Positions 27,001 to 30,000 of a stretch of DNA of 62,708 nt are shown in pieces. Numbering within the stretch: position 1 is the first letter of the stretch; every line of letters starts with the position of its first letter. The stretch lies in the sequence record KP682377.1. One strand, 5' to 3'. The stretch comes from Escherichia phage PA16. A program made the position numbers.

Positions 27001-30000
27001 GGACCATCTGCCGTGGAGCCACCCGGGTGGATGGTAAGCCTGTTATTCCTGGCATGAAGCTGTCGAAGGAAAAATGCGACCGGGTTAACGCCATTGAGCG
27101 TGATAAGGCGCTGGCATGGGTGGAGAAAAACATCAAAGTGCCGCTGACCGAACCCCAGAAAGCGGGGATCGCGTCATTCTGTCCGTACAACATTGGTCCC
27201 GGTAAGTGTTTCCCGTCGACGTTTTACAGACGAATTAATGCAGGTGATCGAAAAGGTGCCTGCGAAGCTATTCGCTGGTGGATTAAGGACGGTGGCAGAG
27301 ACTGCCGTATTCGTTCAAACAACTGTTACGGTCAGGTATCCCGTCGTGACCAGGAGAGCGCGCTGGCGTGCTGGGGAATCGACAGATAAGAAGAATATTT
27401 TGCTGAAAAATGAGGTTTGCTTACATGGACGGATAACACGAAATCCTGCAAATTGGCAAAATGTAAGTGAATAAAGTCAAAACAGTTGTTTAACACTCAG
27501 GCACCGTAATGATGCCTTTGTCATTTCTGCGCATCTCACGCGCATCTCACAACACAGAACCTTTCAGGATGACCCTTGAGGATACCGGTTTGGCTGTCGG
27601 TGCCTTTCTGTGGGCTGGATTCCTGTGAGACAAGGTTCATCACTAAAAGGAAATAACCGATGAATATGATGGCCGTGCCGTTTCACGGCAACTCTCTTTA
27701 TGTAGTTAACCATAATGGCGAACCATACGTTCCCATGAAACCTGTCGTTGCGGGGATGGGGCTGGCCTGGCAATCACAGTTGGCTAAGTTAAGACAGCGT
27801 TTTGCGTCAACTATAACGGAAATCGTTATGGTTGCTGAGGATGGGAAACAACGCAATATGGTGTCCATGCCACTTCGAAAACTTGCCGGCTGGCTACAAA
27901 CCATTAATCCCAACAAAGTAAAACCCGAAATCCGCGATAAGGTCATCCGGTATCAGGAAGAGTGCGACGATGTTCTTTACGAGTACTGGACGAAGGGTTT
28001 TGTCGTTAATCCCCGTAAAATGAGCGTGATGGAAGAACTCAACCAGGCTTGTGCTGACATGAAACGGGATAAAAACATTGCCAGTGTGTTTGCTACCGGG
28101 CTGAATGAGTGGAAACAGGTTAAAGCCGCGCATGTATCAAAAATCCGTACGCTGGTAAATGAAGCGAATATGCTGATTGATTTTGTCCTGGCTGATACAG
28201 GCAAAGGGAAAATAACAAAGGCGGATTGATGGGGTGGCTAATGATATCAGATAAACTCATAACGCTGGTGAAGAGCCTCTGTGTACTTGTCGGCATTTCA
28301 TTTTTAGTCATGCTGGTTGCCATTTTCTTTTCCACCGCCTGGCGAGTCCTGACGTTATCGGGACTGGTGGGGTGAAAGAGAGATGAACCGTGTTCTGTGT
28401 GTGGTGATTATTGTCCTGGCGGTTGGCTATGGTGCGCTGTGGCTGGCAACAAACCATTACCGTGACAACGCGCTCACCTACAAAGCGCAGCGCGATAAAA
28501 AAGCCAGAGAGCTGGAACAGGCGAATGCCACCATTACTGACATGCAGGTGCGCCAGCGTGATGTTGCTGCGCTCGATGCAAAATACTCGAGGGAGTTAGC
28601 CGATGCGAGAGCTGAAAATGAAACTCTGCGTGCTGATGTTGCCGCTGGTCGTAAGCGCCTGCGGATCAACGCCACCTGCTCCGGTACCGTGCGTGAAGCC
28701 ACCGGCACCTCCGGCGTGGATAATGCAACCGGCCCCCGACTGGCAGACACCGCTGAACGGGATTATTTCATCCTCAGAGAGAGGCTGATCACTATGCAAA
28801 AACAACTGGAAGGAACCCAGAAGTATATTAATGAGCAGTGCAGATAGAGTTGCCCATATCGATGGGCAACTCATGCAATTATTGTGAGCAATACACCCGC
28901 GCTTCCAGCGGAGTATAAATGCCTAAAGTAATAAAACCGAGCAATCCATTTACGAATGTTTGCTGGGTTTCTGTTTTAACAACATTTTCTGTGCCGCCAC
29001 AAATTTTGGCTGCATCGACAGTTTTCTTCTGCCCAATTCCAGAAACGAAGAAATGATGGGTGATGGTTTCCTTTGGTGCTACTGCTGTCTGTTTGTTTTG
29101 AACAGTAAACGTCTGTTGAGCACATCCTGTAATAAGCAGGGCCAGCGCAGTAGCGAGTAGCATTTTTTTCATGGTGTTATTCCCGATGCTTTTTGAAGTT
29201 CGCAGAATCGTATGTGTAGAAAATTAAACAAACCCTAAACAATGAGTTGAAATTTCATATTGTTAATATTTATTAATGTATGTCAGGTGCGATGAATCGT
29301 CATTGTATTCCCGGATTAACTATGTCCACAGCCCTGACGGGGAACTTCTCTGCGGGAGTGTGCGGGGATAATCAAAAACGATGCACACCGGGTTTTCTCA
29401 TTTTTCACGAGATGGGAGCGATTTCCCGCGAAGCCGCCTGTCCGGTGCGGTGGTGGAAGAAACCGGATAAAACAACCGCATTGTGCAAATATCGATCAAA
29501 TATGGTGCTGCTGTGTGAAATCTGAAAAATCACAGCGGTCATTATGCATCAGTTTTTAACACAGGACGTCAGAACGTGACATGGCAAAGCTGGACTGGAA
29601 AAAGCTGGAGCAGGCATTCCGACGCGAACATGCCGAAACGGGAATAACATTACTGGACTGGTGCCGGAAGAAAAAGATTAATTACAACACCGCCAGAACC
29701 CGTATAAAAATGGGCAAAATCGATCATGAAATTGATCATAAAACCGATCATGAAATCGATCATGACATCTCAGATGAAGAACCCTGCAATGACGCGGGTT
29801 CCGGCGATGAAAAATGTGCAAAAAACTCTGAAAAAAACTGCGCAAATTCGGCAGAAACGAAACGGATTCGTGGTTCCCGACTTTTACCACCTTCAAACGC
29901 TTTTTCTCAGCGAAACACCCACGCCGTAAGACACCGTGGATATGCGAAGTATCTTGAGGCAGATAACCTCATGGATGATGCGTCCGACATGGTGCTGTTC

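Follow-up and report, generated by a model that had tools for sequence, protein, structure and literature searches.

What purpose is served by four Dam sites that follow each other at exactly 12 bp within the small-terminase gene of a Shiga toxin phage, and is this the place where DNA packaging starts? The question is raised by Escherichia phage PA16 (KP682377.1), of which one strand of 62,708 nucleotides was analysed, the whole stretch being called the window here. It is a 933W-type Stx2a phage. In E. coli O157:H7, Shiga toxin is carried mainly by phages of this type, which bear stx2a. An initial annotation had described the GATC array, placed it in a terS candidate, noticed a phage-borne Dam methylase and suggested a methylation-gated pac or TerS-binding site of the kind known from phage P1. 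The exact period, the location inside the small-terminase gene and the Dam gene were all confirmed (Table 1). The suggested function gained substantial comparative support from arrays in Salmonella, from hexamers of the TerS family that co-vary with the HTH, and from an N-terminal domain weakly related to PacA. The reading preferred here, with a probability of about one half, is that the four YGATCA hexamers are a pac recognition array bound by the HTH of TerS, with binding or cleavage depending on methylation in a P1-like manner.

Table 1. Location in the window of the genes, repeats and hexamers discussed in the text
Feature	Position	Strand	Remarks
Dam-family N6-adenine DNA methyltransferase, 175 aa	16435..16962	+	PF05869, E 6.4e-65; phrog_111, E 8.6e-88
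terS, small terminase subunit, 268 aa	29581..30387	+	phrog_370, E 4.8e-125
HTH-coding segment of terS	29650..29703	+	helix 2, aa 24-31; putative recognition helix 3, aa 35-41 (YNTARTR)
TGGGCA, relic of TGCGCA (family hexamer) with one mismatch	29711..29716	.	10 bp upstream of the first YGATCA
12-bp tandem repeat	29717..29769	+	Tandem Repeats Finder: 4.4 copies, 82% matches
Four-YGATCA array, candidate TerS recognition element of pac	29721..29762	.	exact 12-bp period
Hexamers of the array	CGATCA 29721-29726; TGATCA 29733-29738; CGATCA 29745-29750; CGATCA 29757-29762		
TGTGCA, degenerate family hexamer	29815..29820	.	encodes C-A of 'EKCAKN'
TGCGCA heading the DNA block TGCGCAAATTCGGCAGAAACGAAACGG	29839..29865	.	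TGCGCA at 29839-29844, C-A of 'KNCANS'
terL, large terminase subunit	30368..32074	+	phrog_2, E 1.2e-53; 20-nt overlap with the end of terS
Portal gene	32074-34218		follows terL

TerS has 379 homologues in Enterobacterales and Aeromonas. Profile, AlphaFold2 model and alignments agree on the layout of the phrog_370 family, i.e. an HTH at the N-terminus, followed by a disordered linker and, towards the C-terminus, a helical hairpin. The model predicts helices at aa 6-20, 24-31 and 35-41 (pLDDT 76-87). A linker (aa 46-108) at a pLDDT of about 30 lies between this three-helix HTH (aa 6-41) and the helical hairpin (aa 130-238). A Pfam search of the window yielded no model matching TerS or TerL. A PDB sequence profile search with TerS returned low-complexity noise only, and when the AlphaFold2 model was compared with PDB structures by Foldseek, generic coiled-coil matches alone came up, all with E >0.1. 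The phage Dam scores 218.4 bits against a Pfam gathering cut-off of 28.1, and its GATC specificity is predicted from the family.

The four GATCs start at 29722, 29734, 29746 and 29758 (spacing 12/12/12 bp), and a Dam site forms the centre of each YGATCA hexamer. Read on the bottom strand, the hexamers are TGATCG/TGATCA and conform to the P1 consensus TGATCR: one is TGATCA and three are CGATCA, equal to TGATCG on the opposite strand. The array is translated in frame into the peptide IDHEIDHKTDHEIDHD, aa 47-62 of TerS. The repeat called by Tandem Repeats Finder has the consensus AAATCGATCATG and encodes KIDHEIDHKTDHEIDHDI. It lies in the linker predicted disordered, and a low constraint at the protein level is therefore expected there. 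GATC is under-represented in the window (161 sites vs 244-276 expected), and the four sites in 40 bp within terS are its densest cluster. The nearest other GATCs in the window are located at 29494 and 30667, leaving a single cluster. Four independent GATCs in a 12-bp register would be expected at ~161 x (161/62708)^3, roughly 3e-6 per window. Since the array is a tandem repeat, a fairer null is a 12-bp unit that happens to hold GATC, at about 3-5%. Measured by this null, the observation in a single genome is only mildly significant; it is the comparison with other loci that gives it weight.

Arrays of the same type are present in Salmonella prophages. Three terS genes (L037, L038, L040) contain 3-5 YGATCA at the same gene positions as the window, and their products, with the HTH 'NTARTQIK', are about 57-61% identical to TerS of the window. 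GATC is found at gene nt 142, 154 and 166 (and 178 and 190), matching the window in position and in the 12-bp period. The repeat peptides are SDQK/SDHK/NDHE in Salmonella vs IDHE/IDHK/TDHE in the window, so that YGATCA alone was kept. An origin as a lineage-specific slippage product was rejected, because these ~60%-identical Salmonella TerS genes have YGATCA at the same positions with different peptides. A logo over 30 GATC units from six lineages reads Y-GATC-A with the next base free and fits the P1 hexamer. In Salmonella, the isolated CGATCA that the window has further upstream, at 29493, is not conserved.

Most other members of the TerS family carry TGCGCA in 5-8 copies at the position of the array. 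In 25 loci of this type from Citrobacter, Serratia, Yersinia, Brenneria, Aeromonas, Xenorhabdus and E. coli PhiR12_3, TGCGCA occurs 146 times in terS nt 121-300, i.e. 5.8 per locus. This segment has 32 per kb and the remaining sequence of the loci 0.39 per kb, a difference of about 83-fold. In 2000 trials of synonymous-codon resampling, the count averaged 11.3 and never exceeded 22, vs the 146 observed. The hexamer is used in all three frames (108/29/9), encoding A-Q/A-H, V/M-R-K or C-A. Its spacings are mostly 9-14 bp, and those up to 15 bp average about 10.5 bp. The homologous hexamer arrays are constrained very strongly at the DNA level.

The hexamer type follows the type of the N-terminal HTH domain, a link drawn from the hexamer classes together with the repeats of domain-swapped variants. 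In a de novo search, TGCGCA was the top or joint-top linker 6-mer in 25/26 loci with '[ST]ARR[YH]', and TTCGCA was on top in 5/5 loci with 'SAKRYIT', a Pectobacterium/Brenneria subclade. The repeated element in 4/4 'ART[RQ]' loci, read from the sequence, is a GATCA-containing 12-bp unit; the de novo 6-mer table has a GATC-containing 6-mer on top for the window only among these loci. Two TerS variants with swapped N-domains harbor other repeats, TCCGTC/GACGGA and ACGCAC/GTGCGT. The window fits this family pattern, in which terS nt about 120-300 holds 3-8 hexamers whose DNA sequence is conserved and whose type corresponds to the HTH class. Residues 40-41 of TerS are T-R in the window, T-Q in the Salmonella GATC-type and R-Y or R-H in the TGCGCA-type. 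A two-residue code (R-Y for TGCGCA, T-R/Q for GATC) was rejected as a general rule, since P1 with 'TARRY', locus L056 with 'GRRY' and a Pantoea PacA homologue break the pattern.

The pac elements of P1 are seven TGATCA/G hexamers in pacA (AF234172 annotation; PMC10028697), located at pacA nt 195-353 (AF234172). Dam methylation of these hexamers was proposed to control cleavage (PMC10028697). Profile searches suggest that the N-domain of TerS is weakly and reciprocally related to P1 PacA: 933W TerS matches the PacA family phrog_1711 with E 3.1e-5, and P1 PacA matches phrog_370 with E 1.9e-4. The hhalign comparison of TerS and PacA gave E 1.9e-4 over the HTH with a probability of 48%, the N-terminal HTH domain alone matching. 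No similarity to 933W TerS was detectable in the C-terminal two thirds of PacA, nor any pairwise similarity between 933W TerL and P1 PacB. In P1 as in the window, the hexamers belong to the small-terminase gene and come soon after the part that codes for the HTH. Several TGATCR are placed about one helical turn apart (7/12/15 and 12/11 bp in P1, 12/12/12 bp in the window) and are read in frame as D-H/D-Q. Both phages encode their own adenine methyltransferase, that of the window being a small PF05869 enzyme. The hexamers of P1, however, form one cluster of four and one of three, separated by about 90 bp, which flank the cut sites and span about 160 bp in total, whereas the window has one cluster of four. 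P1 has an IHF site between the clusters, while no IHF consensus is present near the array; the only place where the window matches the consensus WATCAANNNNTTR is 18377.

P1-like plasmid prophages of Pantoea, known here from sequence, provide a further comparison. Their 87-95 kb plasmids encode a full-length PacA homologue of 425 aa with E 8e-30 to P1 PacA (L082, L165-L167). Over its first 70 aa it shares 34% identity with 933W TerS, E 3e-10 (L082). From gene nt 154 onward (nt 142 in the window), TGATCA recurs 5-6 times without variation, exactly every 12 bp. Unlike in the window, the spacers are variable and the units are not tandem duplicates. L056 likewise has 12-bp-phased TGATCA with variable and non-repeated spacers.

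TerS binding, pac function, the cut position and any methylation effect are what we infer for the array in the window. The N-terminal HTH domains of a TerS oligomer would bind the four phased hexamers. Within terS the array follows closely on the 3' side of the segment coding for the HTH, an arrangement by which binding domain and cognate site would be inherited together. Array-bound TerS would then recruit TerL, which may cut nearby and begin a headful packaging series. The N6-methyladenines are positioned in the major groove, where the recognition helix would read, and a methylation-dependent binding or cleavage is thus expected; the array is probably sensitive to Dam. The gating itself is transferred from P1. 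As proposed for TGATCR in that phage, hemimethylated sites would be bound and fully methylated sites cut, and the phage Dam would keep the rapidly replicating DNA methylated.

The surroundings of the array contain hexamers of the other type. The position of TGGGCA in the window is occupied by a perfect TGCGCA in two of the Salmonella prophages (L037, L038) and by TGCACA in the third (L040). TGCGCA-like relics at 29711, 29815 and 29839 count against a clean switch of specificity in 933W. The block headed by the last of these is kept in E. coli, Citrobacter and Salmonella family members regardless of the N-domain type. It may belong to the site as a second part, or be where cleavage takes place.

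An array bound by TerS as pac might also do without regulation by Dam, with GATC just read by an HTH variant and its methylation tolerated. Sister clades use the non-methylatable TGCGCA and TTCGCA for evidently the same function. No PF05869 Dam was found upstream of the Salmonella terS genes in the fetched 10 kb (L037, L038) or 7.6 kb (L040), and a PF05869 homologue was absent from all fetched family loci, covering up to 10 kb upstream of terS. The TGCGCA-type phage PhiR12_3 encodes an adenine methyltransferase, too, of the MT-A70 family; having a methyltransferase is therefore not specific to GATC-type phages. We nevertheless consider this version rather unlikely. Each hexamer would present two N6-methyl groups in the major groove, in the middle of the contact that is presumed, and for P1, which alone among related systems has been studied, cleavage is reported to be under the control of how these hexamers are methylated (PMC10028697). 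A role in packaging would be lost altogether if the array were a neutral slippage repeat in a tolerant linker, its GATCs incidental and its DNA without a function of its own. The linker is indeed predicted to be disordered by AlphaFold2, and the copy number is polymorphic, with alleles of 1, 2, 3, 4, 5 and 7 copies of the 12-bp repeat. The four-copy allele is stable; it was found in 346 E. coli genome records at an identity of at least 99%, the three-copy allele in about 41. With 1-7 copies among the alleles, four copies are not strictly required. Repeats of this kind are common outside terS as well. Among the matches listed in a scan of viral contigs for four GATC-N8 units, which were mostly unrelated tandem repeats in coding sequence, 76/80 fetched loci were without a TerS profile match and 4/80 were TerS/PacA genes. 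In a codon-level test of the GATC-type arrays, 17 GATCA were observed vs 10.8 +/- 2.2 expected from the peptides, a modest excess among units that are tandem duplicates and hence not independent. A neutral repeat is improbable all the same: E. coli and Salmonella clades at ~60% identity keep the array position with different peptides, the homologous position in the family is under very strong DNA-level constraint across three frames, and the phased TGATCA of L056 and of the Pantoea PacA gene are separated by variable, non-repeated spacers.

Two further explanations assign the array to other functions. The cluster could act via a host Dam-dependent factor such as SeqA, or via another DNA-binding protein, controlling terS-terL expression or sequestering new DNA. 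SeqA binds phased hemimethylated GATCs, and nowhere else in this genome, which tends to avoid GATC, are the sites as dense as in the array. This is very unlikely, given that the non-GATC hexamers of the homologues co-vary with the TerS N-domain, with no host factor, and that a promoter/terminator scan found no such signal at the array. Selection might instead act on the peptide, whose Asp/His-rich repeats would bind metal or have a regulatory part in TerS. Chelation of divalent metals by D-H repeats is conceivable, and D-H-rich segments are found in P1 PacA and the Pantoea PacA homologue as well. The chance of this appears slight, since chemically unrelated SAQKNAQK-type peptides substitute in close homologues, the H/Q alternation is exactly what GAT-CAN permits, and the region is predicted disordered.

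The preferred reading, a pac array bound by TerS, has counterparts in other phages. The R-sites of lambda cosB are bound by gpNu1, and the pacL/pacR boxes of SPP1 by G1P. We know of no such site in these two systems under methylation control, and their proteins and motifs are unrelated to those of the window. The logic is the one proposed here: a small terminase, as an oligomer, uses its HTH domains to bind several short phased repeats beside or within terS (background also PMC11331095). An external HTH is not universal, as TerS of HK97 threads DNA through a central tunnel (PMC11331095). Iterons of the lambda O / ori-type resemble the array in that the sites are located in the linker-coding part of the binding protein's own gene, by which protein and site travel as one module. 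They serve replication with unrelated proteins, whereas packaging is proposed for the terS array. Iterons in a replication initiator gene of this type are present in the window, too, at 12891-12988.

The packaging mode of 933W-type phages is inconsistent across the literature searched. TerL trees place them in a 'headful, 933W type' class (PMC7317114; PMC6029569), Stx phages were treated as cos phages with an unexplained plasmid encapsidation (PMC7566468), and PhageTerm called a 933W-like phage 'Mu-like' (PMC7946995). In the same literature, neither a pac site or virion ends of 933W mapped by experiment or read coverage nor a description of TGCGCA arrays in terS was found. How the small terminase reads a pac site is described as unresolved (PMC11331095).

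The array offers a candidate pac site of about 40 bp that is directly testable in an Stx phage. Recoding GAT to GAC would remove the four Dam sites and leave TerS unchanged. The natural series of matched HTH/hexamer pairs, three sequence classes and two domain swaps, could reveal how a small terminase reads pac. More tentatively, and with the odds against it, the TerS family may be modular, the HTH and its cognate hexamers (TGCGCA, TTCGCA, YGATCA and others) switching together. By the GATC variant in Stx phages, only a fully Dam-methylated pac would be cut, and the start of packaging would become an epigenetic decision. If packaging is Dam-dependent, the host and phage Dam would be tied to Stx-phage production and transduction. 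If only fully methylated pac is cut, packaging would be timed relative to replication and to the expression of the phage Dam. This might favour the cutting of the fully methylated integrated prophage, leading to in situ packaging and to lateral transduction of flanking host genes.

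The four GATC sites in terS start at 29722, 29734, 29746 and 29758, a period of exactly 12 bp. Tandem Repeats Finder delimits a 12-bp array of 4.4 copies (29717-29769), and both observations of the initial annotation, this spacing and a Dam-family adenine methyltransferase of the phage's own (PF05869), were borne out. In the terS frame, the array is translated as IDHEIDHKTDHEIDHD (aa 47-62). GATC is under-represented in the whole window (161 sites observed, 244 expected from a mononucleotide and 276 from a Markov model); the terS array is its densest cluster. A 12-bp periodicity is unsurprising in tandemly duplicated units, and the chance of a GATC within one 12-bp unit is a few per cent. 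The array of this single genome is thus real, yet only mildly significant. Alleles of the 933W clade carry 1, 2, 3, 4, 5 and 7 copies. Complete E. coli genomes mostly have the four-copy form (346 records at ≥99% identity); next comes the three-copy form, which is 12 nt shorter (approximately 41 E. coli records).

The array locus lies in the late region, with antirepressor, Rz/Rz1 and bor genes upstream of terS. Positions 29400-30400 are 100% identical to 933W, VT2-Sakai, phi24B and the PA-series Stx2a phages, and Escherichia phage PA4 (KP682372), like several further PA-series records, matches the window's length of 62708 bp. Neither terminase subunit was matched by any Pfam model. Mechanical ORFs over the array in other frames (29678-29896, minus strand, 72 aa; 29726-29929, plus strand, 67 aa) have no support as genes; other-frame ORFs of this region are listed as hypothetical proteins in some GenBank records. 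Further repeats occur elsewhere. Two pairs of 11-bp direct repeats (TACCAGCAGAT/TACCAGCAAAT) are located at 12891-12988 inside a 299-aa ORF (12497-13396). They look to us like origin iterons in a lambda-O-like initiator gene, and would then be a second example of sites within the gene of their own binding protein. A 30-bp tandem repeat (17608-17684) overlaps the start of a 244-aa ORF (17416-18150) some 650 bp downstream of the Dam gene, and a 45-bp repeat (40340-40430) encodes collagen-like Gly-X-Y triplets.

Features of the window and of homologous loci
Feature	Location	Description
terS	29581-30387	phrog_370 terminase small subunit, E 4.8e-125 (PHROGs)
terL	30368-32074	568 aa; phrog_2 terminase large subunit (PHROGs)
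portal	32074-34218	714 aa; phrog_156 (PHROGs)
phage Dam	16435-16962	PF05869 Dam-family methyltransferase, E 6.4e-65
TGCGCA arrays	terS nt ~120-300	L005, L007-L012, L016-L021, L023, L025-L035; 3-8 palindromes each
TTCGCA arrays	terS nt ~150-230	L013, L014, L015, L022, L024
N-domain-swapped Salmonella TerS	L042:1501-2334	TCCGTC x3, then inverted GACGGA x3
N-domain-swapped Salmonella TerS	L043:1501-2298	GTGCGT/GTGCGA, then ACGCAC x3
Pantoea plasmids pFC61912-B_D, pPSP-26e, pEuc3 (L165, L166, L167)	gene nt 154-219	six TGATCA, exact 12-bp period

Salmonella prophages with a TerS approximately 57-61% identical to that of the window carry GATC at gene nt 142, 154 and 166 (and 178, 190). Positions and exact period match those in the window terS. 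The repeat peptides differ from the window's (SDQK SDHK NDHE SDQK NDHN), the hexamers are TGATCA or CGATCA, and the D-H/D-Q alternation is exactly what GAT-CAN permits. Judged by this comparison, the array predates a local slippage event. No PF05869 Dam was seen in the 7.6-10 kb upstream of terS in these prophages. One bearer of a GATC-type terS (L037) has a gene at 6047-6862 with weak Pfam matches to the Pertussis_S1 and Scabin-like ADP-ribosyltransferase toxin families. This gene is placed between antiterminator and lysis genes, which we take to be the expected stx position in 933W.

The TerS family was sampled by a protein search (379 homologues) and a genome scan, which yielded 30 loci from Citrobacter, Brenneria, Serratia, Yersinia, Pectobacterium, Aeromonas, Xenorhabdus and Pseudoalteromonas. 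Across the 25 loci whose HTH helix is '[ST]ARR[YH][IL]K', 146 TGCGCA palindromes fall within gene nt 121-300 (5.8 per locus). Their density there, 32 per kb, exceeds that of the other 133 kb of these loci (0.39 per kb) approximately 83-fold, and a positional histogram confines the palindrome essentially to +100 to +300 of terS. Synonymous-codon resampling with fixed peptides gave 11.3 copies on average and never more than 22 over 2000 trials. All three frames are used (108/29/9), encoding A-Q or A-H, V/M-R-K, or C-A. Spacings are mainly 9, 10, 12 and 14 bp, and those of 15 bp or less average approximately 10.5 bp. TGCGCA is thus conserved at the level of the DNA and not of the peptide.

Hexamer type varies with the N-terminal domain. 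In a de novo search for the top 6-mer, TGCGCA ranked first, alone or tied, at 25 of 26 'ARR[YH]' loci, the sole exception being a distant Pseudoalteromonas locus without an array. TTCGCA was top in all five Pectobacterium/Brenneria/Symbiopectobacterium loci with the helix 'SAKRYITIK', each with five hexamers (25 observed, 2.4 expected). The repeated element of the four 'ART[RQ]' loci, the window and three from Salmonella, is a 12-bp unit containing GATCA; the Salmonella top 6-mers in this search were the unit flanks AAAGTG, AAGTGA and AGTGAT, none of which includes GATC. Two further Salmonella TerS variants retain the C-terminal domain, have an unrelated N-terminal domain and carry other repeats in the linker segment. 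Hexamer type tracks the type of DNA-binding domain, with the classes standing for only a few separate events in evolution. Most simply, the hexamers would be the sites to which the TerS N-terminal domain binds. TGCGCA-like relics remain in 933W at 29711, 29815 and 29839, so a switch of specificity there may not be a clean one. The block 29839-29865 (TGCGCAAATTCGGCAGAAACGAAACGG, encoding CANSAETKR) is nearly identical across E. coli, Citrobacter and Salmonella family members of any N-domain/hexamer type. Possible roles are those of a second site component, a cut region or a recombination joint.

An AlphaFold2 model of TerS (61 sequences, mean pLDDT 70) predicts with confidence a three-helix N-terminal domain (helices 6-20, 24-31 and 35-41), the last two helices forming an HTH. 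The class-distinguishing residues 40-41 terminate the putative recognition helix. Residues 46-108, which hold the repeats, are predicted to be disordered (pLDDT ~30), followed by a long helical hairpin at 130-238. Sequence and fold searches of solved structures with TerS were uninformative.

In phage P1, pac lies inside pacA, with GATC hexamers at pacA nt 195, 202, 214 and 229 and at 325, 337 and 348; the cleavage sites and an IHF site are located between the two groups. The hexamers are the pac elements, their synonymous disruption has served to reduce P1 packaging, and a model has been proposed in which pac is bound when hemimethylated and cut when fully methylated (PMC10028697). PacA and 933W TerS have only the N-terminal HTH domain in common (BLASTP E 0.009, hhalign E 1.9e-4), with reciprocal PHROG matches (3.1e-5 and 1.9e-4). 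An unbiased search through viral contigs for four GATCs phased at 12 bp mostly listed unrelated tandem repeats; 4 of 80 loci among the matches listed fitted the TerS profile, two of them 933W-type. The other two are L056 and L082. The distant TerS family member L056 carries TGATCA/TGATCG/CGATCA at spacings of 13/12/12/12 with non-repeated spacers. L082 encodes a PacA homologue of full length (E 8e-30 to P1 PacA), which shares 34% identity with 933W TerS across its first 70 aa (E 3e-10), and has five TGATCA at nt 154-202 with a period of exactly 12 bp. Its relatives reside on P1-like, non-mobilizable Pantoea plasmids of 87-95 kb, where the homologue of L165-L167 is annotated merely as hypothetical protein. 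Three of four aligned sequences have six TGATCA; the five hexamers common to all four do not vary, unlike the spacer bases. The array on these phage-plasmids is likely their pac site. The 30 units, drawn from six lineages, give the logo Y-GATC-A followed by a free base, in agreement with the P1 hexamer TGATCR on either strand.

The initial annotation had proposed a methylation-gated pac or TerS-binding site modelled on P1. As far as sequence comparison goes, a TerS-binding or pac recognition array of the P1 kind holds up, with a probability of roughly three in four. The window array is one cluster, whereas P1 has two, and no IHF consensus was found near it, unlike P1 pac. Lacking these two structural features, the array is kept apart from P1-type sites proper. 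The C-terminal domain of PacA and the P1 TerL also show no detectable similarity to their 933W counterparts, and the window Dam is of a small PF05869 type.

In the proposed mechanism, TerS oligomers would bind the four phased hexamers via outward-facing HTH domains; a summary of general TerS architecture is given in PMC11331095. Bound TerS would then recruit TerL, which would cut near the array and begin headful packaging (predicted position and direction). Since the Dam methyl groups are central in each hexamer, methylation state likely modulates binding or cutting by analogy with P1; the phage Dam would supply methylation capacity on replicating DNA. For a P1-kind array that is also methylation-gated, the chances are even.

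Published packaging modes of 933W-type phages disagree. TerL-based schemes include a 'headful, 933W type' (PMC7317114, PMC6029569), a 933W-like phage was termed 'Mu-like' by PhageTerm, with host DNA at the ends (PMC7946995), and 933W has been handled as a cos phage, its efficient plasmid encapsidation nonetheless being unexplained (PMC7566468). Headful packaging would be consistent with the unexplained high frequency at which 933W lysogens encapsidate multicopy plasmids. A literature search of incomplete coverage found no paper on 933W pac mapping or on terS TGCGCA arrays. The apparent family-wide pairing of HTH domains with matching hexamer arrays is a more general result than the window array and, to our knowledge, has not been described.
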